From positions 19,154 through 83,153 of the forward strand of contig CAYQTT010000019.1 in assembly GCA_964420555.1 (NCBI GenBank): 64,000 nucleotides of DNA. Reading direction: 5' to 3'. Positions within the stretch are counted from its first letter, which is position 1. Every line of letters starts with the position of its first letter. A program made the translations under genes and the position numbers. The notes beneath the pieces were generated by a model. It did no database searches. It worked only from the letters and a program-made list of their open reading frames with translations, and was not told where the DNA came from. Below, piece after piece: positions 1-16,151 of the stretch. Origin of the DNA: an uncultured Lentimicrobiaceae bacterium (lineage in GTDB: Bacteria; Bacteroidota; Bacteroidia; Bacteroidales; UBA4417).

Positions 1-2028
1 TTCTGGCAGCCTATTCCGCGCATGGCTCCCGGGTTGGTTAGCCTTTACGGCGAATTGCAGGGATTAGACGGCATTCGTCCGCGGCGGGATATTGAACTGC
101 TGCCTTATACTTACGCCAAAGCTACTTTCGACGAGAAAGAAGAAGGAAATCCATTTGAAACCGGTCAGAAATTTAGCGGTACTGCAGGACTCGACGGTAA
201 AATTGCCGTTACCAATGACCTCACGCTAAATTTCACTATCAATCCCGATTTCGGACAGGTAGAAGCTGATCCGGCAGTTGTTAACCTTACTGCTTTCGAA
301 ACTTTTTATCCCGAAAAAAGGCCTTTCTTTATCGAAGGGAAAAATATTTTTACCTACAAACTAACCGGCGCCGACAGCGATAACAATCAGAACATGCTGT
401 TCTATTCGCGAAGGATCGGTCGGGCTCCGCAATATTACCCGGTGGCCGATTCGGGGGAATATATTTCGGCACCCGAACATACTACTATTCTCGGATCGTT
501 TAAGTTATCAGGCAAAACCAGAAAAGGACTATCAATAGGAATTATCGAATCGCTTACACAGGAGGAATTTGCTACACTCGACAAGGCAGGTGAAACGCAT
601 AAGGAAAGTATTGAGCCACTCAGCAATTACCTGATTGCCAGAGTATCGCAGGACTTCAACAAAGGCACAACCGTGGTTGGAGGTATTTTTACTGCAACCA
701 ACCGTTTTATATCTCAAAACGCACCTCAACTGGAGTTCCTGCCCAAAGCGGCTTATACGGGTGGTTTAAATGCCATCCATTTCTGGAATAATAAAACCTA
801 TTACCTTTCGGGCCGGGCAGTTTTTTCATCCATAAACGGAAGTAAAAAATCAATCGATTATCTTGAACGCTCACCGGCAAGATATTACCAAAGGCCCGAT
901 AATGATTACGTTACATACGATACCTCCCGAACTTCGCTGAATGGCTATGGCGGAACACTTGAATTTGGCAAAGCGGGTACCGGCAACTGGCAATTCATGA
1001 GTTATGTTACCATGCGGTCGCCGGGGCTCGATTTTAACGATGTAGGTTACCTGAAACAAGCGGATGAAATTCAGCAGCTTTTCTGGCTGCGCTACCGCAA
1101 ATACAAACCTTTCGGCATTTTCCGATGGGCCTCGGTTAATTTTACGGAATATATTACCTGGGATTTTGGCTTCGAAACCGTAAACAAAGGAATTGACCTG
1201 AATGCCAGCGGTCAGTTTGAAAATTACTATACGGCTGGTGCTGGAATAAATTATGCGGGAACAACTTTATCACGAGGCGAACTTTGGGGCGGACCGGCAA
1301 TTCTTCTTCCTCCGGTGTTCAATTTCAGCATTTATGCCGAAACTGATAGCCGCAAAAAAATAATGTTTAAAGTGAGCACTGCTCAATATTTCGGTCAGCA
1401 AAACTATTACAACAGCCACCGATACTCGCTCGAAATAACCTATAAACCTATCAGCACATTATTCTTTACGCTTAGCCCGACGTATACCTCCGGGTTTAGC
1501 GAATTACAGTACGTTGCCACATCATACTACAAAGGCGAACCCAGGTATATCATGGCCAGTCTTGATAGAGAGATTTTTGAATTATCACTTCGTGTGAATG
1601 TGAGTTTAACGCCTGAACTTTCAATTCAATACTATGCGCAACCATTTATTTTTGCAGGCGAATATAATGATTACAAGCGCATTACTGATCCAAGAGCAAC
1701 AGAATTCACTGACAGGTTTCATGCGTTTACCAGTAACGAAATATCGTATAATGAAGAATGGAACGCCTGGTTTATTGATGAAAACCAGGATGGCAACGGA
1801 GATTATGGATTCTATAAACCCGATTTCCATTACCTGCAATACCGTTCGAATATGGTTTTACGATGGGAATATAAAACCGGTTCATCACTTTACCTTGTAT
1901 GGTCGCAGGGGCGAACCCATCTCGACGAAAACGGCGAAATGGAATTCGATCAATATGTGAATGAGCTTTGGGAAACGCATCCGCGTAATGACTTTATGCT
2001 GAAAATTTCCTATCTGATTGTATTTTAA
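1..2028 (+). CDS. DUF5916-like outer-membrane protein (5' end cut by window edge)
   Basis: The frame is open from nt 1 (FWQPIPR precedes the first Met at 22). It aligns along its length with the full-length paralog at 16152..18770; the block NPDFGQVEADP..FPEKRPFFIEG is 31/39 identical by hand count. It ends ..YLIVF, an OM beta-barrel-type C-terminal Phe. Confidence 0.7.
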   Translation, partial: FWQPIPRMAPGLVSLYGELQGLDGIRPRRDIELLPYTYAKATFDEKEEGNPFETGQKFSGTAGLDGKIAVTNDLTLNFTINPDFGQVEADPAVVNLTAFETFYPEKRPFFIEGKNIFTYKLTGADSDNNQNMLFYSRRIGRAPQYYPVADSGEYISAPEHTTILGSFKLSGKTRKGLSIGIIESLTQEEFATLDKAGETHKESIEPLSNYLIARVSQDFNKGTTVVGGIFTATNRFISQNAPQLEFLPKAAYTGGLNAIHFWNNKTYYLSGRAVFSSINGSKKSIDYLERSPARYYQRPDNDYVTYDTSRTSLNGYGGTLEFGKAGTGNWQFMSYVTMRSPGLDFNDVGYLKQADEIQQLFWLRYRKYKPFGIFRWASVNFTEYITWDFGFETVNKGIDLNASGQFENYYTAGAGINYAGTTLSRGELWGGPAILLPPVFNFSIYAETDSRKKIMFKVSTAQYFGQQNYYNSHRYSLEITYKPISTLFFTLSPTYTSGFSELQYVATSYYKGEPRYIMASLDREIFELSLRVNVSLTPELSIQYYAQPFIFAGEYNDYKRITDPRATEFTDRFHAFTSNEISYNEEWNAWFIDENQDGNGDYGFYKPDFHYLQYRSNMVLRWEYKTGSSLYLVWSQGRTHLDENGEMEFDQYVNELWETHPRNDFMLKISYLIVF

Positions 2029-2145
2029 GACATCAACAAGAACACTGCTAAAAAACACACCATCTATATAATCAGCAGAATAGAATTTGATAATTGTATT
2101 CCATGGCAATGAAATGCCAATACAAAACAAATCCCATGCATTAAA

Positions 2146-2317
2146 GATTTCAGTGCGCTGCACCTTTAACGATATTTTTCCGAGTTTCTACAAATATTTC
2201 GGTGCTCTGCACCTTTATTTATTGCAAATCAAAGATGTAATTGGAAGCCACAGAGTGGCGCAATATTTGTAGTATGGCGTATGAAGTATAATTTTAAGGT
2301 GCAGCGCACCGGAATCT
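2146..2317. repeat. cluster of four REP-like hairpin elements, two per orientation
   Basis: Hairpins at 2152..2164, 2201..2213 (minus orientation) and 2247..2259, 2298..2310 (plus). The common form is AA-[5 bp stem]-AGM-[stem]-GnAATmTTTGTAG. Copy 3 has stem GCCAC/GTGGC instead of GGTGC/GCACC, which is three compensatory pairs. Confidence 0.7.
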
Positions 2318-2421
2318 AAAACCAATCATTATTCCTGTTAAGTGTTTAAGCAGATCCGATATATAATTTCCGATGCTTCCTGATAAAACTCGATGCGTTT
2401 TGCATTCATTAGAATGAAATG

Positions 2422-3042
2422 TTACTTTATCAGCTTCAATCCACTCAGAGCTGAATTGTCGTTTGGACGAAGAATAAGTGCCTGATTAAATAAAACCCTT
2501 GCATCTGCTGATTTGCCTGTATTCAGTTTCGACCATGCCAGCATTATCACCGAATCGTAGTCTAAAGGATAAAGATTTACTACTTTTTCGAAAAGCTTTA
2601 TTGCACTTACATAGTCCTTGCGGTTATAGTAAATTACGCCTAACCAGTAATTAGCAATGGTATTCTGCGGATCAATTTTCAGAATCTCCATATAATGCGT
2701 TTTTACTTTATCCCAGCTTTCGATGGCACTTAGCGGCTTAACGGCGCCAAAGCGGGCTTCGATGGCATACGGTTTCAGCGCGATGGATTTATCGTAATAT
2801 TTTATTGATTCAGTGTATTGCTTTGCGAGGTAATAAAGCCATCCAAGGCGGATGTTAATAATGTAACTATCAGCTTTGTATATCGTTTTCATCGAATTGA
2901 TAGCAGCTGTGTAATTGCCTGATTTCTCCGATTCGAAGCTTTTCACAAAAGTGGCTTGCATAACTGACGCAGTTTGTGCCATAAGGGAACCAAACACAAA
3001 AGTTAAAGTTACTGTAAGCAGAATTCTTTTTAAAGTTTCCAT
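2422..3042 (-). CDS. secreted TPR-repeat protein
   Basis: Signal peptide METLKRILLTVTLTFVFGSLMAQ. TPR-like helical repeats (YYNRKDYVSAIKLFEKVVNLYP, ARVLFNQALILRPND). AGGAGG (3049..3054, minus) lies 6 nt upstream of the ATG. The start overlaps the stop of 3030..4172 by 13 nt. Confidence 0.7.
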   Translation of the reverse strand: METLKRILLTVTLTFVFGSLMAQTASVMQATFVKSFESEKSGNYTAAINSMKTIYKADSYIINIRLGWLYYLAKQYTESIKYYDKSIALKPYAIEARFGAVKPLSAIESWDKVKTHYMEILKIDPQNTIANYWLGVIYYNRKDYVSAIKLFEKVVNLYPLDYDSVIMLAWSKLNTGKSADARVLFNQALILRPNDNSALSGLKLIK

Positions 3043-4172
3043 ATAATTCCTCCTAAAAATGATTGCTGAATGTATTGATCAGTGGTTTGTTCTACTTGTT
3101 TATTATCATACAGGTAATTGCTGTACAACGTGAGACTTTTGTTTATATTCCAGTACACTGACAAACCTGTCCGGAACAATGTAGGATCAATCGAGTTGTA
3201 AATGTATAAGGCGTTGTGATCGTTATAGTTCTGGATATTTCCCAAAGTAACTAATCCTTCGAGCCATACTGTTTTAAAAATACGGGCTCCTGCATATTGG
3301 GCAAATATCAGCCGGCTCGAATCTTTTTCAATCAATCCGCTCAAATACGAAGTAAGATAAAAATTTGCTTTCCCCGGTAAAACAATTCCGGCATGAATCC
3401 CGACTTGCTTAAAGTCGCCAATATCATACCTGAAAAATGATCCGTTCAACCCTAATGATACCCTGTTTAAGCGGGTTGCGAGTGACGAAAACACAAGATT
3501 TCCGGGGTATTTATATCCATCGAGGCTCGTATTCAGATGATGGTATGCTACCGAAAAAGAGGTATGTGATGTTACCGACCAGTTAAGCAGCGCAAAGTAA
3601 TCGGGTTGCTTAACCAAGATCGAATTTACAGTTTGCTTGTAGTTTGAAGCTGATTGATATAGCGACAGCCTGTAACCCACCTGCGAATATATGCCACCAC
3701 GAAAATAAGACGGATTGGTCCGGTTTTCGCCGTTATTGACTTTATAATTATACTCAAGGTCGACAGATGCTACCGGATTGACTTTATGAATCCGCAACCG
3801 GGTTTTCGCCTCTTCAGGCAGCTTGCCTGCATGAAAACGGGCATAGGCAATGTTGCCGGTATTCAAGCCACAATAGTATAGATATTCACGTGTATCGGTA
3901 TCGTATTCGTCAAATTCCAAAGCTTTTTCGTATTGTTCCTGCGAAGCATAATAATCAGCTTTTACAAAATAGGCATATCCCATTCGCTGACGCAGTCTTT
4001 TAAAATCAATATTTTGAGCTATTGACCGTTCAGCTGTTGCAAACAACTGATCCCAATTACCTGAAAGATAGCAGTTGTATGTAATACTGTCAACTGACTC
4101 ATAAGTAATTGAATCCTGAGCCTTTACCCCTACCGAAAACAAAATCAAAATGAAAATTATTAATTTATGCAT
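3030..4172 (-). CDS. signal-peptide protein with TPR-like N-terminus and beta-rich C-terminus (possible OM barrel)
   Basis: Signal peptide MHKLIIFILILFSVGVKAQ. TPR-like segment YYASQEQYEKALEFDEYD, then about 250 aa of short alternating strands. No family recognised. It has 13-nt overlaps with both neighbouring genes. Confidence 0.55.
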   Translation of the reverse strand: MHKLIIFILILFSVGVKAQDSITYESVDSITYNCYLSGNWDQLFATAERSIAQNIDFKRLRQRMGYAYFVKADYYASQEQYEKALEFDEYDTDTREYLYYCGLNTGNIAYARFHAGKLPEEAKTRLRIHKVNPVASVDLEYNYKVNNGENRTNPSYFRGGIYSQVGYRLSLYQSASNYKQTVNSILVKQPDYFALLNWSVTSHTSFSVAYHHLNTSLDGYKYPGNLVFSSLATRLNRVSLGLNGSFFRYDIGDFKQVGIHAGIVLPGKANFYLTSYLSGLIEKDSSRLIFAQYAGARIFKTVWLEGLVTLGNIQNYNDHNALYIYNSIDPTLFRTGLSVYWNINKSLTLYSNYLYDNKQVEQTTDQYIQQSFLGGIIWKL

Positions 4173-6367
4173 ACTGCCTTTATTTTTATTTCGGATGATT
4201 CAAATACGAATTCCTGTACACGGTTATCGCTCAGGGTTATAATACTGTTGCTTTCGATGCGGTTTTTCCTGAATACTGAAACCTGAATCCCGGATTTCAA
4301 TACCAATAAACCTGTATCGAACATATTATCGCCGGATTCAACTTTTATTGAGTATCCCGCACGAATATAGTTATAAAAAGGAGCAACAAAATCGTGTATC
4401 CAGATGCTTGTTTTTTTATTCCTGATTACGTTAAGCGGCATGGCATCGCGCAAAACAATTGATTCGGGATTACCCAAAAACACCTTGTAAACCGACAGGT
4501 AAAAATAATACAGCAATGATTTTTTATTCCCATAGAAGGCCGTAAAGTAAAACATGGAGCCGTCGTTCACATAATAAGCACTCGATTCGGTCTCCTTGCA
4601 ATACAGGTATTTATTGTTGTATGCGTCCGTGTAAGCAATCCATTGTTCAGTTACATTCACACCTTTTTCATTGGTGAAAGAGTATTTCAGACTTGTGTCG
4701 GGCATTATGTCAAAGGCTGATTTAAGGAGCGAATTGCCTGTAATTCCTGAAACCAGATCGCCTTCGGCCGGTTTTGAAAACTGCTGCAATTCAAGCCCTG
4801 ATTTTCCCTTCTGCTGGTAGTAAGCAAACGGATAGTCGATGGTGCGGGCTCCAACCAGCGGAGTTACCTGTACCTGAAAATGAAGGTGTGGCTCCGGCGA
4901 ACGGCCTGAATTGCCGCATAAGGCCAGCAAATCGCCTTTTTGAACAAAATCGCCTTTCGCTACTTTAAACGTTCCCTTTTTGAGGTGCGACATTTGCGTA
5001 TAAAGCCCCGGCAGATGACGAATTACAATTGTATTTCCCCAATTGTTTGATGTGTCAACTTTACCAATTTCGTTATCATCAACATTATCGATAATTTCTT
5101 CAACAATACCATCGGCAGGTGCAAGCACAGGTTTGTTATAGCAATAGTAATTCTCGCAAAGTAACCCCTTCGACTTATAGGTCTTCTGATTTTCATCTTT
5201 AATCATAAAATCGAATGCTTTTCCCCAGTCACCTTTATGCGTATGCTCGCCATCATGTCCTTGCGTGACTGTCCATTCGCCCCAGAAAGGCAGATAAAAC
5301 GGGAAATACAGGAAATGTGACAACCTCTCCTTGTTGTTATTAAATGTGTAAAGATTGATTTCGGGCGAATTGTACTGAATGGGTGTGAGAATCAGTTTTG
5401 ATGGTGTTACCCTTAAACGGAGAAAATAAACAAACAGTATTACCACGAATGAGAATGGCAGCGAGAAAACCGGTAGCTGAATGAAACCGAATAATTTACT
5501 TAAAAACAGCAATACCAGCGATGTAAGCGGCACTAACAGAACCGCCCACCAGTAGGAAAAGCGCGAAGGAATAAGAAAGAATCCGCCAACGGCAAGGGCT
5601 ACCATAATATAGTTTGCTCCAATGTTATAGTAAGTAATACTGGCAGCTTCCGATCCTGAAAACTGTGCAAACATATATGCCGAAAGAAACCCAAGAACAG
5701 ATAACGAAAATGCAATCCGCGAACTTAGCAATACAACAACAGATATTATGATCCCAGCAATCAGGTTATTCTGAAAAAAAATGGAGCTCATCGACCGGAG
5801 ATAAATATCCAGCATCTTATGAATTGGCAGCGAATCGATAGTTTGTAAAAATGAAAGCATCGAATTGCCGCCTATCGCGTATACTTCGTTGATCCAGTAT
5901 ATGTTGCGTTGTGTTAGTCCCAGGTTTTCGAATTGCGACGAAGGCAGTACCACAAACCAGAAAGAAATCACAAAAGGCAGGCTGAGGAACGGCAACCCGC
6001 TCTTCCCAAGCCATCCACCAAGAGTTACAGAAAGAATCAGCGTCAATAATGCAGCAATTAACAGCAAACTAAAAAAAACGAAACCGGGATCAAAAAATGT
6101 TCCCATGCCCATACCCGTCAGCAATGCATTGAAACTAAAAATTCCGTTTTTCAGCTGCAATTTATCCAACCCCATTGTATTGGCAATGAGTACCGTTACC
6201 AACACCGCAATTAATCCACTCAAGCCTGCATAAAAGTTCAAAAAAGTAATCAGGAGAATAATGGCTGCCAGCCATTTGTTGCTGAAAAAGAAAATCGCGG
6301 AATAACTGTTCAGTGTGGCTGGCAGAATTGTGTTGCGAAAAGTGTCGACAAAACGATGAAAGAGCAT
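4160..6367 (-). CDS. urea-transporter-like polytopic membrane domain fused to an M23 metallopeptidase domain
   Basis: The N-terminal ~330 aa has about 10 hydrophobic helices with a UT-family look (FFFSNKWLAAIILLITFLNFYAGLSGLIAVL). The central region has M23 signatures (GNTIVIRH..YTQMSHL..GDFVQKGDLLALCGNSGRSPEPHLHFQV). The C-terminal ~220 aa is unassigned. Confidence 0.75.
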   Translation of the reverse strand: MLFHRFVDTFRNTILPATLNSYSAIFFFSNKWLAAIILLITFLNFYAGLSGLIAVLVTVLIANTMGLDKLQLKNGIFSFNALLTGMGMGTFFDPGFVFFSLLLIAALLTLILSVTLGGWLGKSGLPFLSLPFVISFWFVVLPSSQFENLGLTQRNIYWINEVYAIGGNSMLSFLQTIDSLPIHKMLDIYLRSMSSIFFQNNLIAGIIISVVVLLSSRIAFSLSVLGFLSAYMFAQFSGSEAASITYYNIGANYIMVALAVGGFFLIPSRFSYWWAVLLVPLTSLVLLFLSKLFGFIQLPVFSLPFSFVVILFVYFLRLRVTPSKLILTPIQYNSPEINLYTFNNNKERLSHFLYFPFYLPFWGEWTVTQGHDGEHTHKGDWGKAFDFMIKDENQKTYKSKGLLCENYYCYNKPVLAPADGIVEEIIDNVDDNEIGKVDTSNNWGNTIVIRHLPGLYTQMSHLKKGTFKVAKGDFVQKGDLLALCGNSGRSPEPHLHFQVQVTPLVGARTIDYPFAYYQQKGKSGLELQQFSKPAEGDLVSGITGNSLLKSAFDIMPDTSLKYSFTNEKGVNVTEQWIAYTDAYNNKYLYCKETESSAYYVNDGSMFYFTAFYGNKKSLLYYFYLSVYKVFLGNPESIVLRDAMPLNVIRNKKTSIWIHDFVAPFYNYIRAGYSIKVESGDNMFDTGLLVLKSGIQVSVFRKNRIESNSIITLSDNRVQEFVFESSEIKIKAVCIN

Positions 6368-6516
6368 ACCGGGAGTATAAAGATTGTGTTTAAAGGTTAG
6401 TAGATTTTATTGTTCAGATACTTTGACGGTAAAAATCCAATTGCCTGATGTGTCATATGACTGAATGTTAAACTATTCCAATATCAGAACCAGTATCTGA
6501 TACTATTTCTTACGTA

Positions 6517-6747
6517 TCACAGTCTATATTTATTAAAGATCTCTTTTCTGGTTGGGCAAGTACAAATAGATGAATTCCCGAAAGACATTTTATAATTGCA
6601 GAATGACTTGCCTACGTATTTCACAAAAAGAACTTTTTTATTGATGCAATTCTCAACGTTGCAATAAACATGGCTATCACTATTCAGACAATCAAAATCT
6701 CTGGGACAATTCCATGTTACTGAGATTGTTTTCTTATCTATTTCCAT
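6517..6747 (-). CDS. small cysteine-rich hypothetical protein (76 aa, 7 Cys)
   Basis: ATG-initiated ORF on the same strand as its neighbours. Cys pattern C-x5-C-x8-C-x4-C-x15-C-x11-C-x-C-P. The DNA is visibly more AT-rich than flanking genes. No family recognised, so coding status is uncertain. Confidence 0.4.
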   Translation of the reverse strand: MEIDKKTISVTWNCPRDFDCLNSDSHVYCNVENCINKKVLFVKYVGKSFCNYKMSFGNSSICTCPTRKEIFNKYRL

Positions 6748-6849
6748 TTCAAATTATTTAGTTGTTCTGTTTACTACAAAGTAATATCGAACTAATACTT
6801 GCCTCTGACTCCAGGCTCATCGCTAAAAGCACAGAACCTGAGAATTCAG

Positions 6850-8220
6850 TTATTTGGTCTGATCCAGCCTCAAATACTCCGGAATCTGCTCATTTGAAAG
6901 CATTGTTTCGAGGGTCTCGGCTTTGCGGATCACATGCGTTTTGTTTTCGTTATCAATTAAAACGATGTTGGGCCTCAAGGTAATAAACTGCATCCATTGT
7001 GTCATATTGTATGCTCCAACTTTATGCACAACCACATTATTTCCTTTTTCGAGCAGTGGCATGGTGATGCTTTCGCGAATTACATCAATATTCATGCAAA
7101 GCGGGCCATATAGCACCATTTCTTCGGTATGCTGTCCAAAGGACTGTGTAGTGCTGATCTGGTGATCGTACCAAAATGCTGTAAAAAGGGTATTCACTCC
7201 AAAATCGAGAACAGTAGCCCGCCGTCCATCCGAAAGACGTTTAGTAGCCAGAACCGTGCCAAGTAAAAAACCTGCATCGTCAATAAGCACCCGACCCGAT
7301 TCAAGAATCAGCAGTGGCAGGTCTTCCTGCTTAAACCCATACCCAAGAATTACATCTGTAATAGCATCGGCAAACTGATCGACCGAAGGAATAGTATCAG
7401 AACCCGGCAGGTACGCTCCTTTTAATGTATTGGTCGAAGGGAAACCTCCGCCCAGATCGATATACTGCAATACTTTTTTGAATTTTTCTTTAACACTCCA
7501 TGTCAATTCACAGAGTTTGGTTGCCGCTGTCGCATAAGCTGAGGGCGAGAGCATAAATGTGCCGATGTGGCAATGCAGTCCTACCAGGTCGAGATTTTCG
7601 GAATTAATAATGCGGGAGATGGCTGTCCAGGCCTGTCCGTTTTCAAAATTAAATCCAAACCTATCCCATTTGGGGTAAATGCCGGTATCCATATTCACAC
7701 GGATAGCAACCCTGGGTTTCAGATTATTTTCTTCGCTGAGTTTGATCAGCGAGTAGAGTTCGTCGAAATGATCGATATGGATCAGCGAATTGTTGCGGGC
7801 AGCAGTAATAAGCTGTTCGTCGGTTTTATCGGGACCATTAAAAATGATTTTATTCCCGGGAACGCCATTTCCCAGCGCTTTTTCGTACTCAAAACCCGAC
7901 ACCACCTCGGCCCAGGAGCCTTCCTGGTGAAAAATGCGGCAAACGGCATCAAGGTAATTGGTTTTATACGACCAGGCAAACTGAACTTTTGGATAACGCG
8001 TTTTGAATATTCGAGTTGCATTCTGATAATTGCGCCTTATCTGTTTCTCAGATAACACAAATAACGGGGAACCGAATTCATCAATCAGGCTTTTTACCGG
8101 CACACTTTCGATGTGTGTTACCGGAATATTTTCAGTGCGGGTACCGAATTTATTCATGAGCCCTGTGCTCATTTTTTTAATAATCGGTCTTTCATATCTT
8201 AGTTTTTCCATGGTATTCAT
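6850..8220 (-). CDS. PLP-dependent amino-acid decarboxylase, Orn/DAP/Arg decarboxylase (fold type III) family
   Basis: Family motifs: FAWSYKTNY (PLP lysine context), GLHCHIGT, IDLGGGFP, ESGRVLIDDAG, GPLCMNIDV. Alternative start at Met4 (8211). The substrate cannot be assigned from sequence. Confidence 0.85.
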   Translation of the reverse strand: MNTMEKLRYERPIIKKMSTGLMNKFGTRTENIPVTHIESVPVKSLIDEFGSPLFVLSEKQIRRNYQNATRIFKTRYPKVQFAWSYKTNYLDAVCRIFHQEGSWAEVVSGFEYEKALGNGVPGNKIIFNGPDKTDEQLITAARNNSLIHIDHFDELYSLIKLSEENNLKPRVAIRVNMDTGIYPKWDRFGFNFENGQAWTAISRIINSENLDLVGLHCHIGTFMLSPSAYATAATKLCELTWSVKEKFKKVLQYIDLGGGFPSTNTLKGAYLPGSDTIPSVDQFADAITDVILGYGFKQEDLPLLILESGRVLIDDAGFLLGTVLATKRLSDGRRATVLDFGVNTLFTAFWYDHQISTTQSFGQHTEEMVLYGPLCMNIDVIRESITMPLLEKGNNVVVHKVGAYNMTQWMQFITLRPNIVLIDNENKTHVIRKAETLETMLSNEQIPEYLRLDQTK

Positions 8221-8246
8221 TGTTAGTATATTTCATTTACTTCAAT

Positions 8247-8254
8247 CAAAATTA
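8247..8254 (-). promoter_or_regulatory. -7 promoter box for the decarboxylase gene
   Basis: The minus strand reads TAATTTTG, 27 nt upstream of the ATG at 8220 and just downstream of the heptamer array. Confidence 0.45.
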
Positions 8255-8301
8255 TATCCGTGCTTTAGAAACCAAAACGGTTATTGCGATCGAAGCGACA
8301 A

Positions 8302-8378
8302 CACTTTTCACTATTCACTTTTCACTATTCACTATTCACTATTCACTTTTCACTTTTCACTTTTCCCTTTTCACTTTC
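8302..8378. repeat. tandem heptamer array (CACTWTT) x11
   Basis: Eleven head-to-tail 7-nt units (CACTTTT/CACTATT, one CCCTTTT). It starts at the ATP-grasp stop codon and ends about 50 nt upstream of the decarboxylase promoter box. Confidence 0.9.
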
Positions 8379-9453
8379 ACAGCTCACCGGTCCCAGAAAT
8401 TTTCTGAAATTCGCTGACATCGGTAATCAAATCCCAGGCGTAGCGTATAAACATTTTACCCACTTCGTATTCGCTGTAAGGTTCCACCTTTTGTCCCATT
8501 GCCATTTTAACCAGTGATGCCGGCTGGTTTTGACCTGCTGCTGCTGTTAAATAAATCCAGGCAGGAAACCGGGGATTGACTTCCATAATATAAGGCTTCC
8601 CATCATCCGACTGCATAATTTCAAGTTCACATCCACCCCGCCATTTGGTAACTTCTATAAATTTACGGGCAAGTTCAACAAACGACGAATCGTCGATTGT
8701 AATTCCCGACCATGCTTTCCCTTTATCTGTGATATAGAGTTTTCGCATGGGGATCACACTTATTGCATTTCCTTCGCCATCGCCTAAAGCGGCAACATTA
8801 ATTTCGGTGCCTTTAATAAATTCCTGAACTATAATCGGCAATCCCCATTTAGCCTGAATTTTGTAAAATGCTTTTTCAGCCTGCTCAAGCGTATTTACAA
8901 TAATAGCGTCATAAAATTTGCCTTTAACAACCATAGGGTACCCCATTTTTTCGGCTGTTGCTTTCATATCCTTTACATCATGCATGATTTTATCCTCAGG
9001 CACCATTAACCCGTGCTTTTTACCGAACTCGAATAATTTCACTTTATCACGGGCCTCAAACTGTTCAAGATCGGGAAGGAAGGAGCGAATCCCAACTTTT
9101 GCCAGCTTGTCTCTCAGTTTTATAAAATTGAAAAGTTCAGCATCAAAATTCGGGATTACCAGATCAATTTTTTCACGATCGTGGATGTACATCAGCCGGC
9201 CCATCAACGCATCAGTTCCGGCTGAAGGATAAGGAATCTGGTAGGTTTTATCAACAACATCGTGCATATACGAACCCGGTTCGAGCGATTCGTAGGAAAG
9301 GCCTATAATCCTTACTTTAAAATCGCTGCATTCGCGGATAGCGCGTATTACAGCTACACCAGGGCCCGGGCTGTCAATGGCATTTAAACCGGTAACGGCA
9401 ATTACTATTTGCTTTTGGGAGATATGGTTTCTGTTTTCGGCCTGGTCGTTCAT
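8377..9453 (-). CDS. ATP-grasp carboxylate-amine ligase family protein
   Basis: ATP-grasp signatures MVVKGKFYDA, IIVQEFIKGTE, IMEVNPRFPAWIYL. The pre-ATP-grasp N-domain has IVIAVTGLNA. The substrate is unknown. Confidence 0.8.
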   Translation of the reverse strand: MNDQAENRNHISQKQIVIAVTGLNAIDSPGPGVAVIRAIRECSDFKVRIIGLSYESLEPGSYMHDVVDKTYQIPYPSAGTDALMGRLMYIHDREKIDLVIPNFDAELFNFIKLRDKLAKVGIRSFLPDLEQFEARDKVKLFEFGKKHGLMVPEDKIMHDVKDMKATAEKMGYPMVVKGKFYDAIIVNTLEQAEKAFYKIQAKWGLPIIVQEFIKGTEINVAALGDGEGNAISVIPMRKLYITDKGKAWSGITIDDSSFVELARKFIEVTKWRGGCELEIMQSDDGKPYIMEVNPRFPAWIYLTAAAGQNQPASLVKMAMGQKVEPYSEYEVGKMFIRYAWDLITDVSEFQKISGTGEL

Positions 9454-9502
9454 GATTATAAATAATTGCAGTTAGAGTAAATGAGTTATTCTTTTATTGA
9501 AA

Positions 9503-10303
9503 TTATTTTCTCACTGAAAGTTTGTATGTTTCTGATTTAAATTCGCCAGCTTCAATCCTGTAAAAATACATTCCGTCAGCCAGATCGTTGGTTTGAACCA
9601 CTATATTATCGAACGTATGATCTACAACATATAACTTCACCAAATTACCGCTTACATTATACACTTTTAATTCAGCCTGATTTACATTAAACGGCAGGTT
9701 GTATGGTATTGTAACAGTATTGGAAGTCGGGTTTGGAAACGCATTTCGTAACGAAAACCGTTTGCCGGCCGGAAAGTCATTAATGCTTGTTGCTGTTTGC
9801 CCGGGAATCGAATACACTTTTGTGTTAACTTTTTCAGGGAAAACAGAAAAATCATATTCCCATACAAGAAGTTTAGAACCGGTTTGAGCAGGATAAATAA
9901 GAGAATAACCCCCACCTGGAATTGTTTGAAGGATTGTTCCCGATTCGCTTGCAATGCGTGTATCATACGTATAATAAGCCAGCGAGGAATTGTAGATACA
10001 GGACACATAAAGCAGTTCAATAGAGTTATCAGTATTAAACAGGTTTTCGCTTACAAACTGAATATCACAGAGATAATAATTGGCTGGAATGCTCAGATTT
10101 ATCGTTTTCCATAAGGTATGATCGTTATTATACAACTTGCACTGGCTGTTTGGTACGTCCATAACATAGTATTTATAGCCAGCAACAGGCAGATTAACAT
10201 AAGCAGCCGACACTCCTGTATAGGTATGCTCTGGAATTATCTGGCTTTTTAAACCATTAGCTACAGCCACTAAAAAGATGAGAATAAATGCGATTTGTTT
10301 CAT
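9503..10303 (-). CDS. secreted protein with T9SS C-terminal sorting domain
   Basis: Signal peptide MKQIAFILIFLVAVANGLKSQ. C-terminal ~80 aa of the type-A Por sorting pattern (FPNPTSNTVTIPY...LKVYNVSGNLV...LADGMYFYRIEAG...KLSVRK). Confidence 0.75.
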   Translation of the reverse strand: MKQIAFILIFLVAVANGLKSQIIPEHTYTGVSAAYVNLPVAGYKYYVMDVPNSQCKLYNNDHTLWKTINLSIPANYYLCDIQFVSENLFNTDNSIELLYVSCIYNSSLAYYTYDTRIASESGTILQTIPGGGYSLIYPAQTGSKLLVWEYDFSVFPEKVNTKVYSIPGQTATSINDFPAGKRFSLRNAFPNPTSNTVTIPYNLPFNVNQAELKVYNVSGNLVKLYVVDHTFDNIVVQTNDLADGMYFYRIEAGEFKSETYKLSVRK

Positions 10304-10384
10304 AAAAATTGACTTTTGTTTTGGTTCAGTTAGTCTATGGTTTATTAGTTTTTGTGAGTTAGTTTTCTGGATTTAGGCAATCAG

Positions 10385-10624
10385 TTATTCGAAAATTGCA
10401 GCTTCTTTAAGTTGCGCTACAAAATCATCGAGATCCTTTTCGAACTGGTGTTTATCCACATCATACTTTAAGCAGATCGTATCAATAATTTCATGCAAAA
10501 GTTTTTCAGCCTTGAGCAGTGAAATCACTTCTGTACCGATTGAATTTGTTGTGAAGGAATCTCCTGTACCCGGATTAAAAACAAATCCTTCTTCGCTGGT
10601 GGCAATATTTTTTCTGAGTTTCAT
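10385..10624 (-). CDS. PqqD-family (RRE-like) small protein
   Basis: FVFNPGTGDSFTTNSIGTEVISLL...DLDDFVAQLKEAAIFE matches the PqqD/peptide-chaperone pattern. I prefer the ATG at 10624; the ORF-track start at 10681 is a TTG. Confidence 0.65.
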   Translation of the reverse strand: MKLRKNIATSEEGFVFNPGTGDSFTTNSIGTEVISLLKAEKLLHEIIDTICLKYDVDKHQFEKDLDDFVAQLKEAAIFE

Positions 10625-10694
10625 TGTGATGAATTTGTATCTGGTTTCTGGTAAAAAGTAATTTATTCTTTCTTCTTTCAATTTAAACTTTAAG

Positions 10695-10702
10695 CAAAGA
10701 TA
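10695..10702 (-). promoter_or_regulatory. -7 promoter box heading the PqqD/T9SS/ATP-grasp gene string
   Basis: The minus strand reads TATCTTTG, 71 nt upstream of the ATG at 10624 (14 nt from the TTG at 10681). Confidence 0.45.
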
Positions 10703-11484
10703 AAGTGGCTATTTGCTCATTAAAAGTGAATTCAGCATAACCCCTCCTCCTTTAAGTAGAAAGCATAAATGAACAGGTGAACACTTCGAAAAAAAAATTT
10801 TTACTTATAGCACCAAATACTCATTTTTCTTCGTAACTTTAATAGGTTATAAGTTCCTTAAAGATAAAACTTGATTAATACCATTTTAGCGTTGAAAATT
10901 TGTATATAAACTAACCTATCTGTGCATAAGAACTTGGAAAACTTGTACTAAGCATTTGCAAATTCGGGTAATCTTTCAAATTGTAATTACTACTCCCATG
11001 AAAAGATATCCAGAAAATGGCTGCATAAGTGAAACGTTGTCCTGGCAAAGCTCAAAACTTACCTTCCTGATTCTTATGTGCCAATGTCAGATTGCACCCA
11101 AACTAAATCAAAAGTTTCATACTTCTCTGGTTATATTTATTCACACTGATATCATTCCTGATCCCAACCAGGCATCATTCTTTGTTTATACAAAATCCAT
11201 ACATAGGTATATTATAATTCTCCCTGTTCACAGGGCTATCCATATCTTCCCTCATTTACTTCATAAAAATTCTGGCAAGTTCTCATGCTCGCTTTTTCTC
11301 AGGCAATTAACCAACCGAAATATCCAACAATTCGGATGGCAAAAGCCATTTCACTATTTCTTCTCTATCTATACTGTTGAATGCATTACTAAAAAATTAT
11401 CCAATCTCAAACAAACATCAAAGCTGTCGTATGATGGCCTACTGTTTGCATTAATTAATCATTAATTTACTAATTCTTTTAAAA

Positions 11485-11490
11485 AGGAGG
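11485..11490 (+). promoter_or_regulatory. canonical Shine-Dalgarno site
   Basis: AGGAGG 5 nt upstream of the ATG at 11496. Most other genes in the window lack such a site. Confidence 0.5.
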
Positions 11491-11495
11491 TATTT

Positions 11496-12509
11496 ATGTT
11501 TAAAAAGATGCTTGCAATACCAATACTTTGCATCAGTATGGTATTTTTTGTTCAGTGTAGCAAAGATTTATCCGATCAGGATACAAATAATTACAGTGTT
11601 AAAAAAGGGCCCGGTGGCGGTGGAAGCGGTGGAGGAAGTGGTGGCGGAGGAGAGGAAAGTGCTACAAACAATTTATCGTTCCCAGCATTTGCAATGGATG
11701 CTTTTACTATTACGCCAATGCCAATTCCATCTTTCACAGTTCCATATACCGGACCTTACACCGGTTTGTCTGCTGAAGAACTTGCTGCTTTGGAAGGCTA
11801 TACCTGGTATGCACAAAAGGTTACTGGCAATAAATGGCAGGCCGAATTTAAGCAAATGAACGCACCAAATGTGGTTACCTTTATCGATTGGGGCGATGTG
11901 CTTGAATCGGTAAACCCGAAAATCAACAGGCCAACAAGGGTTGAAGTAACATTGTATAAGGATGTTTCCGATGACCCAATGACAGGCTACACAATGGCTT
12001 TGCTGGCATTTCCAAGCAGTAAAGATGAGAAACAGGGAACCAATGGCGTTACATATGACGGGATATGGGCTACTCTTGTTTCACCAGCACCAAAATTAGT
12101 AATACAGTCTATTGCTAATCCGAATATAGTTCCTACATGGGATGGCTCCAAGTGGATAGGCGAGGGTGTTGGAGCCCCGGCTACAGGTTTTGGTTTTGCC
12201 CCGGAACTGAATGTTGGCGGAAAATATATTTTTGGGGCATCGACAGGTGGCTGGAAACCAACTGTTACCGGTGTTTACAGGATAACCTTCTATGTACCTG
12301 CAAATGGATCCAATATCCAGATTACTTCTGAAACAATAATAGCAAATTATCCAGGGAACCAATCGTTTCCAGAGATAACTCCATTAGAAGGAGAATCCGG
12401 AGCAGCAATACCTGTTGTGAGAGGAGATCTTAACCTTACCTATGTTGATGTAACAGTCGTCGCAGGCGGTGGTGGCGGCGGAGGCGGTGGCGGCCATCAG
12501 CTACCATAA
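11496..12509 (+). CDS. lipoprotein of unknown family with Gly-rich linker and poly-Gly C-terminus
   Basis: Lipobox-like signal (ISMVFFVQC-SKD). GPGGGGSGGGSGGGGEE linker and C-terminal AGGGGGGGGGGHQLP. Canonical AGGAGG 5 nt upstream of the ATG. Strong terminator downstream. Confidence 0.65.
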   Translation: MFKKMLAIPILCISMVFFVQCSKDLSDQDTNNYSVKKGPGGGGSGGGSGGGGEESATNNLSFPAFAMDAFTITPMPIPSFTVPYTGPYTGLSAEELAALEGYTWYAQKVTGNKWQAEFKQMNAPNVVTFIDWGDVLESVNPKINRPTRVEVTLYKDVSDDPMTGYTMALLAFPSSKDEKQGTNGVTYDGIWATLVSPAPKLVIQSIANPNIVPTWDGSKWIGEGVGAPATGFGFAPELNVGGKYIFGASTGGWKPTVTGVYRITFYVPANGSNIQITSETIIANYPGNQSFPEITPLEGESGAAIPVVRGDLNLTYVDVTVVAGGGGGGGGGGHQLP

Positions 12510-12541
12510 TTATCGCCAATTTTGTTTATGGATGTTAACCT

Positions 12542-12572
12542 AAAAGAGCCTCATTTACACTGAGGCTCTTTT
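12542..12572 (+). terminator. rho-independent terminator after the lipoprotein gene
   Basis: AAAAGAGCCTCA-tttacac-TGAGGCTCTTTT, a 12-bp perfect stem followed by T residues. Confidence 0.8.
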
Positions 12573-12934
12573 GAATTTACATAATCTTTGAGTTTGCTTA
12601 TCCACATTCATTAATGAGTGAACCTTGTTAATTAGCTGTTACACGATGATTCGATTTAAAAAGGATTGTACACAGAAGATTATATTTGAAAAATATACTG
12701 AGCTGAATGAATAATTAAGTCAACCGAACTGGCAACAGAAAGCAATTAAAAGACGAAAAGACATAAAGTAATCACATAAATGAGAGAGAGCCATTTTAAG
12801 GAGTTTATTCAATTTTAAAAATTTTCTCTTAAACCCTAAATGCTTAGATAATTTAACGAATTTGCAGGATATTTTAATGCTGATCCGGATTACTTTTTTT
12901 GACAGCAAGAAAATTTAAACTGAAAAGAAAAAAC

Positions 12935-13981
12935 ATGAATTCAAAACGACTCATCCTTCCCGACCTACTCAAAGGACTTGCAGCACTCTTTATGGTTCAG
13001 ATCCATATCACCGAACTATTTATAGATACAGCCGGAAAGGAAAGCTTATTTGGGAAAATATCATTATTCCTTGGCGGGCCTTTCGCTGCTGTGGTTTTTA
13101 TGATTGTTATGGGCTATTTTATTGCCCGGAACAAAAGCACTTTAGCACAAAATGTACTTCGGGCAGTAAAGATTTTTATACTCGGATTTTTACTGAATTT
13201 CGGGTTAAATTTCCATTTACTGCTAAAAATCAGGTTTGCCGACTGGCCTTACAATCCGCTGGAATATCTTTTTGGCGTCGATATTTTATACCTTGCCGGG
13301 ATGAGCATTGTAGTGCTCGCTGTCCTGAAATCGCTCAAAAAAGGACAGGAAGCAGCTGCTCTGATCCTGCTCGTAGCAGTTATTGCATTAACAGGTTTCA
13401 TGAACCTGAAGCTAACTGCAGATAATCATTACTACATATTGCCTTTTATTGCAGGAAACTATTCGTGGTCATACTTCCCACTTTTTCCATGGCTGGCTTA
13501 CCCGCTGGCAGGATTTATCTTTGCACGCAATGAACCAAAAATTAAACTCTTCACGGAAAGCAACAAAACAGCTTCAATTTTAATTATTTCGCTAATTGCC
13601 ACAGGGGTTTTGCTTTACGCCAAACAAGGAATAAATACAACCATAAACCTTCCGGCATATTATCACCATACATTCCTGTTTATTCTGTGGGCAATAGGAT
13701 TATCGGCGCTTTGGGCCCTTTTGCTCAAATTTGTAGTGAAACTTCTGCCTGGTGCGGCTGTTACCAATATCTTCTGCTATATCGGGAAAAACATAACCGT
13801 TTTCTATGTAATACAATGGCTGATAATCGGGAATATTGCAACAGCCATTTATCAAACCCAAACTCTCGGTCAATACTGGTATTGGTTTACCGGTATATTT
13901 GCGGTTTCGGTTATGCTTACATTTTTAATTGACAAAATCCGGTTGAAATTATTTCGGAAACCGAAAAAAAAGGTGATCTAA
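12935..13981 (+). CDS. DUF1624/heparan-alpha-glucosaminide N-acetyltransferase-like membrane acyltransferase
   Basis: Polytopic membrane protein with the N-terminal LPDLLKGLAALFMVQIH motif typical of this acyltransferase family. ATG at 12935 preferred over the TTG at 12899. Confidence 0.65.
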   Translation: MNSKRLILPDLLKGLAALFMVQIHITELFIDTAGKESLFGKISLFLGGPFAAVVFMIVMGYFIARNKSTLAQNVLRAVKIFILGFLLNFGLNFHLLLKIRFADWPYNPLEYLFGVDILYLAGMSIVVLAVLKSLKKGQEAAALILLVAVIALTGFMNLKLTADNHYYILPFIAGNYSWSYFPLFPWLAYPLAGFIFARNEPKIKLFTESNKTASILIISLIATGVLLYAKQGINTTINLPAYYHHTFLFILWAIGLSALWALLLKFVVKLLPGAAVTNIFCYIGKNITVFYVIQWLIIGNIATAIYQTQTLGQYWYWFTGIFAVSVMLTFLIDKIRLKLFRKPKKKVI

Positions 13982-14020
13982 AATTAAATTTCCAATAATA
14001 AATTACAACTACCTGCTCTA

Positions 14021-14740
14021 CTAGACCAGGAATGTTTTATCCACAAACTCCTGAAATTTCTCTTTATACTGTTCGCCTACAGGGATATAAACAATATGAT
14101 CGAAAACAATCCTGTTTCGTTCAATCACTTTTATACGATCAAGATTGACGATAAATGAACGGTGCACGCGCATAAATTTTTCCTTCGGCAATTGCTCCTC
14201 CATCGCTTTAAGCCTAATAAGCGTTGTAACGGGCTCATCATTAATCAGATGAATCTGAATATATTCGTTAGCGCTTTCGATATATTTGATTTCGGATAAG
14301 AAAATACGAACCATTTTGTATTCTGATTTTACAAAAAGGCTGTCCTGGGTAGTTTGAACGGATTCCTGCTGTTTTTGATTTAACCTGAACCAGGTTTTAG
14401 CCTTGTTGGCGGACTTCAGAAATACTGTGTAACTGATCGGTTTAAGTAAATAATCAAGCGCATCAACCTGAAAACCTTCGATAGCATATTCGCTGTATGC
14501 GGTGGTAAAAATGATCTGCGGCTTTTGCGTCAGCGATTTTACAAAATCCAGTCCGTTAAGGTCGGGCATGTTAATATCCACAAACATAAGGTCCACCTCG
14601 TTGTTTGCAAGAAATTCGATGGCATCGAAAGCACTACGGCAAAGCGCAACCGCTTCCAGAAACGGAGTTTTTTCGATATACGCGATTATTTGCTTCAGAG
14701 CCAGTGGCTCATCGTCAATTGCCAGGCATTTTATTGTCAT
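14021..14740 (-). CDS. LytTR-family response regulator
   Basis: Receiver domain (CLAIDDEPLAL, LMFVDINMPDLNG, KP) plus C-terminal LytTR domain (IKYIESANEYIQIHL...FMRVHRSFIVNLDRI). Confidence 0.9.
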   Translation of the reverse strand: MTIKCLAIDDEPLALKQIIAYIEKTPFLEAVALCRSAFDAIEFLANNEVDLMFVDINMPDLNGLDFVKSLTQKPQIIFTTAYSEYAIEGFQVDALDYLLKPISYTVFLKSANKAKTWFRLNQKQQESVQTTQDSLFVKSEYKMVRIFLSEIKYIESANEYIQIHLINDEPVTTLIRLKAMEEQLPKEKFMRVHRSFIVNLDRIKVIERNRIVFDHIVYIPVGEQYKEKFQEFVDKTFLV

Positions 14741-15860: not shown

Positions 15861-15892
15861 TTTTTAAATTACAGAATCCGATGCTTTAACCA

Positions 15893-15900
15893 CAAAGATA
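15893..15900 (-). promoter_or_regulatory. -7 promoter box for the LytS/LytTR operon
   Basis: The minus strand reads TATCTTTG, 33 nt upstream of the ATG at 15860. Confidence 0.5.
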
Positions 15901-16151
15901 GGTTCAGCAGGGTTGATTAACAAATTATATCAGCAAAATGCCATAAAAGTTAAACAGATCATCAGGATAAATCAGCAAACCTTGTTATTCCCTGAACTGT
16001 TTAATCGATGATTCAGCCGATATCACCGTTAATATTCATGATTACACATATTTGCAATAAAACAATCCCATTTTTGAATTAAAAGACAGTATTAATTTAT
16101 TTTATTTGTAACATTTTTTAGTGCTTTCACGTCTTACACAAAATATTCTTC

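Follow-up and report, generated by a model that had tools for sequence, protein, structure and literature searches.

What do a PqqD-family protein, an ATP-grasp ligase, an amino acid decarboxylase and a urea transporter-like (UT) protein fused to an M23 peptidase do when they are encoded one after another? The question is raised by eight consecutive minus-strand open reading frames (ORFs), positions 2422-10702, in the window, by which is meant the whole 64,000-nt stretch of DNA analysed here (contig CAYQTT010000019.1, positions 19,154 to 83,153, from the uncultured Lentimicrobiaceae bacterium GCA_964420555.1). All eight ORFs were found where a preliminary description of this DNA had placed them. 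The domain calls (Pfam and NCBIfam profile searches of the window proteins) were confirmed, as were the two 13-nt start/stop overlaps, which are exact and lie at 4160-4172 between the UT/M23 and beta-barrel genes and at 3030-3042 between the barrel and TPR genes. Six of the eight genes, encoding the PqqD protein, the ATP-grasp ligase, a pyridoxal phosphate (PLP)-dependent decarboxylase, the UT/M23 fusion, an outer-membrane barrel protein and a secreted TPR protein, make up a single operon, whose promoter box and start/stop overlaps are conserved. The other two, which encode a secreted protein sorted by the type IX secretion system (T9SS) and a small protein with seven cysteines (7-Cys), are lineage-specific inserts, passengers that do not belong to the unit. 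The answer put forward here, tentatively and with somewhat less than an even chance of being right, is that the six genes form a conserved, undescribed system that would build and export a small, probably amine-containing metabolite by means of a ligate-then-decarboxylate module, a channel-tethered hydrolase and an envelope conduit.

The conservation of the unit was determined by scanning one genome per species (185,579 species) with the ATP-grasp sequence, a pattern-limited scan in which 104 places were confirmed and 80 distinct loci kept. The presence of each gene was established by tblastn with all window proteins, and the denominators given below are the loci with enough sequence. The 80 loci come from Bacteroidales (Lentimicrobiaceae, Paludibacter, Mariniphaga, Prolixibacteraceae), Chitinophagaceae, Hymenobacter and Crocinitomicaceae. 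The order pqqD, ATP-grasp, decarboxylase, UT/M23, barrel and TPR is colinear in 37 of the 38 loci with room for it, which represent four Bacteroidota classes. Gene by gene, PqqD is present in 76/76 loci, the decarboxylase in 59/59, UT/M23 in 48/48, the barrel protein in 39/40 and the TPR protein in 40/40. The preliminary description had proposed that the locus is a real and undescribed unit and had allowed that its genes might not occur together in related genomes beyond chance; a co-occurrence as regular as this lies far beyond chance, and the unit is real and conserved and, as it seems, undescribed. Moreover, the intergenic gaps are mostly below 100 nt (4-100 nt) in about 75 loci, with many junctions below 20 nt, and both the overlap of UT/M23 with the barrel gene (-13 or -16 nt) and that of the barrel with the TPR gene (-13 nt) are kept phylum-wide.

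The promoter evidence concerns two TAnnTTTG boxes, both of which are present in the window, where this pattern occurs at chance frequency (73 observed against 75±9 expected). Among the orthologous loci, the box stands within 150 nt before pqqD in 42 of 74, against 8.6% expected, with a modal distance of 70-89 nt to the ATG. The other box, which precedes the decarboxylase gene (8247..8254 in the window), recurs in 0/77 other loci, so that of the two proposed boxes that of pqqD is conserved and that of the decarboxylase is not. Since a conserved box precedes pqqD and none precedes the decarboxylase in the 77 other loci, the comparison indicates one operon with one promoter before pqqD. The start of pqqD is most likely the ATG at 10624, as in all orthologues, and not the TTG at 10681. 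An Rfam scan of window positions 1-17000, the operon leader included, gave no match up to E=1, and scans for sigma-70 promoters and terminators were uninformative, with counts near the shuffle expectation.

The T9SS gene was found in only 12 of the 80 loci, every one of the Lentimicrobiaceae type, and the 7-Cys gene in only two (L008 and L044). Because they are restricted in this way, and because other loci hold unrelated inserts in those places, the two genes are passengers, and their earlier inclusion as members of the locus is not retained. Outside the loci with the T9SS gene, the spacing from pqqD to ATP-grasp is -23 to about 100 nt. The unrelated cargo seen at operon junctions comprises a 121-aa helical protein, a 255-aa lipoprotein and a 765-aa secreted protein, and was found in the ATP-grasp/decarboxylase spacer (L050, L052, L008, L010) and in the decarboxylase/UT spacer (L024); the T9SS and Cys genes of the window resemble such junction insertions. 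Between the stop codon of the ATP-grasp gene and the start of the decarboxylase gene lies a spacer of 2 to 1172 nt across orthologous loci, which in the window is filled by a 7-nt tandem repeat (CACTTTT on the plus strand, 8302-8377, 10.9 copies, 91% matches).

The composition of the system was followed further by an exhaustive HMMER search with the ATP-grasp, which gave 234 cluster representatives at E<=1e-30; Pfam was run on those of unusual length. Relatives in other lineages and phyla, with 30-50% ATP-grasp identity, keep PqqD, ATP-grasp, decarboxylase and usually the UT protein, and the contigs of these distant variants range in G+C from 0.46 to 0.70. The cluster names of the distant relatives were in no case informative, and a search of a plasmid collection gave one unrelated Streptomyces protein of 28% identity. 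In the distant contexts PqqD is present in 10/10, the decarboxylase in all eight with enough sequence, and the UT protein and a secreted TPR protein in 6/8 each. Moreover, an amide or ester hydrolase is found in six of eight (M23 twice, SIR2 three times, DLH once). Two contexts (L088/89 and L095/96) are of the six-gene type seen in the window, with UT+M23. The others are ordered TPR, PqqD~ATP-grasp, a 290-aa protein, decarboxylase and UT+SIR2+GNAT (L083); TPR lipoprotein, PqqD, double ATP-grasp, decarboxylase and UT+SIR2 (L090); PqqD, double ATP-grasp, decarboxylase, UT alone and a DLH/S9 hydrolase (L093/94); TPR, PqqD, ATP-grasp, a 315-aa protein, decarboxylase and UT (L097); PqqD, double ATP-grasp, decarboxylase and a SIR2 protein (L098); and giant TPR, HEAT and TonB_C-like proteins, PqqD and ATP-grasp~decarboxylase (L084-87). 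Tandem double ATP-grasps of about 710 aa are numerous among the distant relatives, and Pfam revealed a PqqD+ATP-grasp fusion (P0426) and an ATP-grasp+decarboxylase fusion (P0411). Because of these fusions and because PqqD, ligase and decarboxylase recur together in distant contexts, the three are one functional module, of which a UT-fold protein with a hydrolase is the usual partner. At the high-GC locus L084, which is without a UT protein, the ATP-grasp~decarboxylase fusion is followed by a 637-aa protein of no Pfam family (12670-14583) and then by a hybrid PAS histidine kinase.

The decarboxylase is the component whose specificity can be read most closely. Its orthologues are 64-98% identical, with 201 of 456 residues at least 97% conserved. 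Its best match in the PDB is 7kh2, the N-citrylornithine decarboxylase FigC/FslC (5e-62), followed by LysA (1e-44) and BtrK (1e-21); it reaches neither the LysA model TIGR01048 (220.8 bits against a cut-off of 297.9) nor the FslC model NF041039 (230.3 against 500). In ornithine, arginine and diaminopimelate (DAP) decarboxylases, an acidic residue after the catalytic Cys binds the distal amine of the substrate, and R343 of the specificity helix of the DAP decarboxylase (DAPDC) from M. jannaschii binds the distal carboxylate; in FigC the corresponding residues are Met and Thr/Tyr (PMC7857480). The alignment gives the FigC pattern, with 'GPLCMNID' (Met after the catalytic Cys) and 'LFTAFWY' (Thr at the place of DAPDC R343), and both determinants are conserved in 68 orthologues and in all distant variants. 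The enzyme is, judged by these residues and scores, FigC/FslC-like and not LysA, and the alternative that it might be an orthologue of LysA, NspC or SpeC does not hold; a LysA or a housekeeping coincidence was rejected on the equivalog cut-offs, the non-LysA residues and the colinearity. Its substrate is probably an amino acid with a distal side-chain group that has already been acylated or conjugated. Therefore, the ligase would act before the decarboxylase, as in FigA/FigC, SbnE/SbnH and BtrJ/BtrK. The ligate-then-decarboxylate route, one of three proposals made earlier for this locus, is strengthened by the FigC-type residues and by the two kinds of fusion. A gene of the IucA/IucC type (siderophore synthetase independent of non-ribosomal peptide synthetases, NIS) was found in none of the loci examined, distant variants included.

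The ATP-grasp ligase belongs to an uncharacterised subfamily of the CPSase (carbamoyl-phosphate synthase)-like/ATPgrasp_Ter kind, and each of its Pfam and NCBIfam matches lies below the equivalog cut-off. Its orthologues are 60-96% identical, and 146 of its 358 residues are at least 97% conserved. Graspetide maturase families are not among its 24 NCBIfam matches, the best of which are the CPSase-like PRK12767 models; membership of the graspetides (microviridin type) was rejected, as there is no maturase-family match and no precursor was found. The extreme C-terminus (8377-8388) reads ...G-E-L before the stop and is invariant in 81 orthologues, which suggests a docking or catalytic role.

The PqqD protein passes the PF05402 gathering score and thus has the PqqD/RRE fold required in clusters for peptides that are made on the ribosome and modified after their translation (RiPPs), where RRE is the RiPP recognition element; its best NCBIfam matches are lasso-peptide PqqD chaperones, below cut-off. 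Its gene directly precedes, or is fused to, that of the ATP-grasp in 76/76 loci and in 10/10 distant contexts. No conserved small ORF was found in the junctions or within 450 nt upstream in about 75 operons, the stretches that this search covered; the small ORFs of the upstream 450 nt, clustered across loci, are only alternative-frame or neighbouring-gene fragments, and in the distant variants a precursor ORF was likewise neither evident nor called. The C-terminus of PqqD varies in length and residue (E, D, N, S, F, Y and others) and is internal in the fusion P0426, and a LysW-like carrier role was rejected because there is no conserved C-terminal attachment residue (Glu).

A leader-like motif was found on the decarboxylase instead of on a peptide. 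An N-terminal tail of about 35 residues, absent from FigC and LysA, is common to all decarboxylases of the system, and within it the motif Y-x-x-P-x-[ILV] is present in 76/76 orthologues and in 8/9 distant variants. Among decarboxylases recognised by their 'GPLCM' signature, 78 of 84 have the motif in the tail, against 1.4% of other ORFs. YxxPxL is the leader motif of lasso peptides and fits the hydrophobic cleft of the PqqD-type RRE B1 (PMC6784204, PMC10368454). The tail as a genuine lasso precursor was rejected, as no conserved acidic acceptor follows the motif. We infer that PqqD may dock on this tail and so couple the decarboxylase to the ATP-grasp, an arrangement that fits both types of fusion.

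Over its whole length the UT domain can be aligned with dvUT (3k3f) and UT-B, and it keeps the motifs LPxLSxxF and FSLPF and the FQNN of its second half, the first-half FQNN having diverged to FFSN. Against the Yut equivalog TIGR03441 it scores 107.6 bits and does not reach the cut-off of 274.6, and no urease or urea genes were found near the loci; within its biosynthetic operon, the UT protein is joined to a hydrolase or stands next to one. Proteins of the UT+M23 architecture have been mentioned in passing, in one line (PMC12998343). In relatives, a CobB-like NAD-dependent SIR2 deacylase and an acetyl-CoA-dependent GNAT stand in the place of M23 after the UT domain (L083, 7233-9344, with GNAT; L090, 12544-14217), and for this UT+SIR2(+GNAT) architecture no description was found in the literature searched. 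Because these fusions use cytoplasmic cofactors, because a positively charged RLRVTPSK segment follows the last UT helix and because the termini of UT-B are intracellular (PMC12998343), the M23 domain is most likely cytoplasmic. This location contradicts the M23-type processing in the envelope that had been proposed for it. The M23 residues H377, D386, H451, S460-H461 and H494-x-H496 are invariant in six divergent members. The AlphaFold2 (AF2) model of the UT/M23 protein is poor (pLDDT 56, from a shallow alignment) and cannot be used for the topology or the zinc site.

The remaining two proteins belong to the envelope. What had been described as a beta-rich protein with a signal peptide is correctly so in its beta part; its AF2 model (pLDDT 91.9) corrects the description to a signal peptide, TPR-like helices at residues 24-125 and a barrel of about 14 strands at residues 132-379. 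Foldseek relates it to the OmpG, CymA and FadL barrels and to the TPR+barrel exporters PelB, BcsC, PgaA and AlgE. Pfam and NCBIfam searches gave no family for this 380-aa protein or for the 76-aa Cys protein, and no Pfam barrel family, DUF560 included, matches the former. Its secreted TPR partner has weak TPR_Slam matches.

Put together, these observations are consistent with the following sequence of events. The ATP-grasp would form an amide on a side-chain group of an amino acid, in the simplest case on the distal amine of Orn, Lys or a DAP-like diamino acid, leaving the alpha head free, and the FigC-like decarboxylase would then remove the alpha-carboxylate to give an N-acylated amine or diamine. 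PqqD would present no ribosomal precursor and would clamp the YxxPx[ILV] tail of the decarboxylase, holding the two enzymes together. At the membrane, the UT-tethered cytoplasmic hydrolase (M23, or a CobB-like SIR2 or alpha/beta hydrolase in relatives) would trim or deprotect the intermediate. The UT-fold protein would pass the product to the periplasm, and the TPR protein and the TPR+barrel porin would carry it to or across the outer membrane. The simplest guess at the product is an N-acyl or possibly a ureido diamine, and the LytTR two-component system would probably control expression in Bacteroidales. The more specific arrangement, in which an RRE docks an enzyme by its leader-like tail, the ligase and decarboxylase form a metabolon at the UT-fold protein and the tethered hydrolase deprotects at the mouth of the pore, is possible and rather doubtful.

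Several points weigh against this account. Sequence and profile comparisons of the ATP-grasp with the PDB gave only remote matches (CPSase, biotin carboxylases, Ddl) and no close characterised relative. The proposed contact between PqqD and the tail is deduced from the identity of the motif. The first zinc motif of M23 is atypical, H377 and D386 being nine residues apart, with eight between them, and not in an HxxxD arrangement. Besides UT matches, Foldseek gave the C-terminal part of the low-confidence UT/M23 model a weak LolA-like resemblance (E about 5e-3), a fold typical of the periplasm; the cytoplasmic location of M23 is itself deduced. The export of an acyl-diamine through the UT channel is speculative, since UT channels form narrow pores that suit small neutral amides; the UT domain could be a mere membrane anchor, and the direction of transport may be export or import. 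Finally, the TPR and barrel proteins are absent from some variants (L093, L098), and the envelope leg may be dispensable.

The same genes can be read in other ways. PQQ (pyrroloquinoline quinone), mycofactocin, 3-thiaglutamate and fosfazinomycin are precedents for peptide-templated synthesis, and in a RiPP-like or scaffold-peptide pathway PqqD would present a peptide encoded elsewhere, or one too small or divergent to be noticed, to which the ligase attaches an amino acid by its side chain, which the decarboxylase modifies, the hydrolase releases and the membrane proteins export. The PqqD protein is indeed a bona fide member of the RRE family, fused in one relative to the ATP-grasp as in RiPP enzymes; an RRE with an ATP-dependent amide ligase, a hydrolase and an exporter parallels lasso B1/C/B2/D; a LytTR two-component system lies nearby, as at peptide-pheromone loci; and scaffold peptides have a precedent in small-molecule synthesis (PMC13622209). 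This reading, the RiPP-like tailoring system among the earlier proposals, is nevertheless weakened by the lack of a precursor gene in or next to some 75 operons, many of whose junctions are shorter than 20 nt, and in the distant variants, where none is evident. The ATP-grasp, moreover, matches no graspetide maturase family, the enzymes are unusually conserved, unlike those of typical diversifying RiPP systems, and the cognate-looking recognition motif lies on the decarboxylase itself, and we consider it unlikely. The attachment of a decarboxylation-derived amine or stem residue to a peptidoglycan precursor, to peptidoglycan or to an outer-membrane polymer, with the M23, TPR and barrel proteins acting on or anchored to the wall, draws on the fact that the nearest well-studied relatives belong to D-Ala/meso-DAP chemistry (Ddl-type ATP-grasp, DAP-decarboxylase-like enzymes, and an M23 closest to the peptidoglycan peptidases Pgp3, Csd and MepM). 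An acylated L-centre on the DAP of a stem peptide would likewise agree with the loss of the DAPDC Arg and of the acidic determinants, and the TPR and outer-membrane partners are envelope proteins. It has little probability in our view, as a CobB-like SIR2(+GNAT) or an alpha/beta hydrolase can stand in for the M23 domain, which is probably cytoplasmic, PqqD is not known to act in wall synthesis, the loci have no linked genes of the Mur, Fem or LD-transpeptidase type, and 104 places (80 loci kept) among 185,579 species in a pattern-limited scan point to an accessory trait and not to core wall chemistry.

The traffic could also run inwards, with an external amide or peptide-like compound entering through the barrel and the UT channel, being cleaved by the hydrolase and reworked by the ligase and decarboxylase, or with the UT/hydrolase protein serving as a sensor. 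UT proteins are bidirectional channels, 14-strand barrels such as CymA, FadL and OmpG serve uptake, cleavage coupled to import would be well served by a hydrolase at the cytoplasmic mouth of a channel, and regulatory systems are linked to the operon; but in every characterised precedent ligases that consume ATP and decarboxylases of the FigC type work in biosynthesis (PMC7857480), the fusions join PqqD, ligase and decarboxylase in a single module, and no catabolic enzymes or binding-protein transporters are linked to the loci, which makes uptake, salvage or sensing very improbable. The proposal that housekeeping genes (LysA, a generic ligase, a urea transporter and a wall hydrolase) are adjacent by coincidence would agree with the generic public annotation ('carbamoyl-phosphate synthase large subunit', 'urea transporter'). 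It is refuted by the colinearity in 37/38 loci of four classes, the conserved overlaps, the fusions in other lineages and the non-LysA residues, and every component lies below its housekeeping equivalog cut-off.

Table 1. Positions in the window of the operon, its inserts and the upstream regulatory genes.
Feature	Position	Strand	Evidence or remark
Promoter-type box TAnnTTTG (TATCTTTG)	10695..10702	-	71-78 nt upstream of pqqD ATG; sequence read
PqqD-family small protein, 79 aa, RRE-type peptide-binding fold, core gene 1	10385..10624	-	PF05402 E=3e-12
T9SS-sorted secreted protein, 266 aa, lineage-specific insert	9503..10303	-	type-A sorting tail, PF18962 Por_Secre_tail E=1e-11
ATP-grasp ligase, 358 aa, core gene 2	8377..9453	-	ATP-grasp_3 and ATPgrasp_Ter, E~1e-12
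Fold-type-III PLP decarboxylase, 456 aa, core gene 3	6850..8220	-	Orn_Arg_deC_N E=5e-30
Codons Y9-E-R-P-I-I14, YxxPx[ILV] leader-like motif in the N-terminal tail of the decarboxylase	8179..8196	-	
76-aa 7-Cys protein, lineage-specific insert	6517..6747	-	no Pfam/NCBIfam family
UT domain of the 735-aa fusion protein, N-terminal part of core gene 4	5423..6319	-	PF03253 E=2e-51, full length
M23 metallopeptidase domain of the 735-aa UT/M23 protein	4853..5290	-	PF01551 E=2e-16
C-terminal beta-rich domain of the UT/M23 protein	4163..4852	-	no Pfam family
Outer-membrane protein, 380 aa: signal peptide, TPR-like domain, beta-barrel; core gene 5	3030..4172	-	
Secreted TPR protein, 206 aa, core gene 6	2422..3042	-	TPR families up to E=1e-21; signal peptide in sequence
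LytTR response regulator	14021-14740	-	Pfam; upstream of operon, same strand
PF06580 histidine kinase	14715-15860	-	Pfam; upstream of operon, same strand

The neighbourhood of the operon is conserved in part. Among the 58 loci with more than 3 kb of upstream sequence, orthologues of the LytTR regulator stand upstream on the operon strand in 23 and those of the kinase in 22, with 54-95% identity, and in several loci the regulator ends 180-400 nt from pqqD; in Bacteroidales, this two-component system probably controls the operon. Chitinophagaceae have instead a RimJ/SpeG-like GNAT 80-220 nt upstream, and the system repeatedly includes GNATs similar to acetyltransferases of diamines or amino-acid analogues. 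The loci share no conserved glycosyltransferase. In the window, the locus lies between two plus-strand DUF5916 paralogues (22-2028 and 16152-18770, the second also with CBM9), and a DUF5916 gene is likewise found downstream of the TPR gene in related loci of the Lentimicrobiaceae type. The plus-strand ORF at 11496-12509 encodes a lipoprotein-like protein of 337 aa and no Pfam family, with glycine tracts near its N-terminus (GGGGSGGGSGGGG) and a G10 tract near its C-terminus. A membrane acyltransferase of the Acyl_transf_3/HGSNAT type is encoded at 12899-13981 (plus strand), divergently upstream of pqqD, and likewise in 10 loci of the Lentimicrobiaceae type.

The interest of the locus lies in a set of unusually conserved enzymes that has no curated family, name or paper. 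If the proposed model is true, the ligate-then-decarboxylate chemistry of rhizoferrin, staphyloferrin B and butirosin would be extended to an ATP-grasp ligase, and the PqqD/RRE fold would gain an enzyme-docking role, so that genome mining that takes the RRE as a RiPP marker would need adjusting. The UT fold would likewise acquire its first role outside urea transport, as the membrane partner of cytoplasmic amide hydrolases, and a previously unrecognised system for the synthesis and secretion of a 'protected amine' would be common to several diderm lineages. A signal, a polyamine-like envelope factor and an antimicrobial of abundant freshwater and sediment Bacteroidota are all conceivable as the product.

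The literature searches gave no description of the system apart from the one-line mention of UT+M23. Among curated NCBIfam families, none reaches its cut-off for the ATP-grasp, the decarboxylase or the UT/M23 protein, and none matches the barrel protein; the system fails a defining feature of each known family tested. With the urea transporters Yut, dvUT and UT-B, the locus protein shares the full-length fold, motifs of the LPxx[S/T]xPF type and the second FQNN, but it lies below the Yut cut-off, has FFSN in place of the first FQNN and is linked to a hydrolase. The barrel protein resembles PelB, BcsC, PgaA, AlgK/AlgE and the Slam translocators in architecture only, an N-terminal periplasmic TPR domain being followed by a barrel; unlike PelB, BcsC and PgaA it has about 14 strands and not 16-18, its barrel has 250 residues, the TM-scores are low (0.35-0.5) and no synthase or glycosyltransferase is linked. 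The lasso-peptide machinery has in common with the operon a PqqD-type RRE, the YxxPx[L/I] motif and the combined roles of RRE, hydrolase, ATP-dependent amide former and exporter. It differs in that the operon has no precursor gene, carries the motif on a 456-aa enzyme, and uses an ATP-grasp instead of an Asn-synthetase homologue and a hydrolase that is not a transglutaminase-fold B2.

Closer parallels are found in pathways that protect or load a substrate before modifying it. In the LysW/LysX/LysK system, ATP-grasp ligation, modification and release by a metal-dependent hydrolase would fit the same protect-modify-deprotect scheme, whereas the PqqD protein lacks a conserved Glu at its C-terminus, M23 or SIR2 takes the place of M20 as the hydrolase, and no LysW-like zinc ribbon is conserved. 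Butirosin BtrI/BtrJ/BtrK follows the same ligate-then-decarboxylate logic, since Glu is first loaded onto a carrier protein by an ATP-grasp and then decarboxylated by a fold-III PLP enzyme, and in both cases the genes for an ATP-grasp, a DAPDC-like decarboxylase and a small accessory protein lie together; here, however, the small protein has the PqqD/RRE fold and is not a phosphopantetheinyl carrier, the aminoglycoside machinery is absent and the decarboxylase is nearer to FigC than to BtrK. From FigA/FigC the operon differs in using an ATP-grasp ligase and not an NIS synthetase (IucA/IucC), in having no linked TonB-dependent receptor or exporter of the major facilitator superfamily, and in adding PqqD, the UT/hydrolase protein and TPR proteins. 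FigA/FigC (FslA/FslC) of rhizoferrin and SbnE/SbnH of staphyloferrin B nevertheless perform the same two steps, the ligation of an acid to the side chain followed by decarboxylation by a PLP enzyme of the alanine racemase fold. Like FigC, the decarboxylase of the operon has the Cys-Met pair and the Thr/aromatic specificity helix, is devoid of the determinants for free basic amino acids and DAP, and is encoded next to an ATP-dependent amide former.

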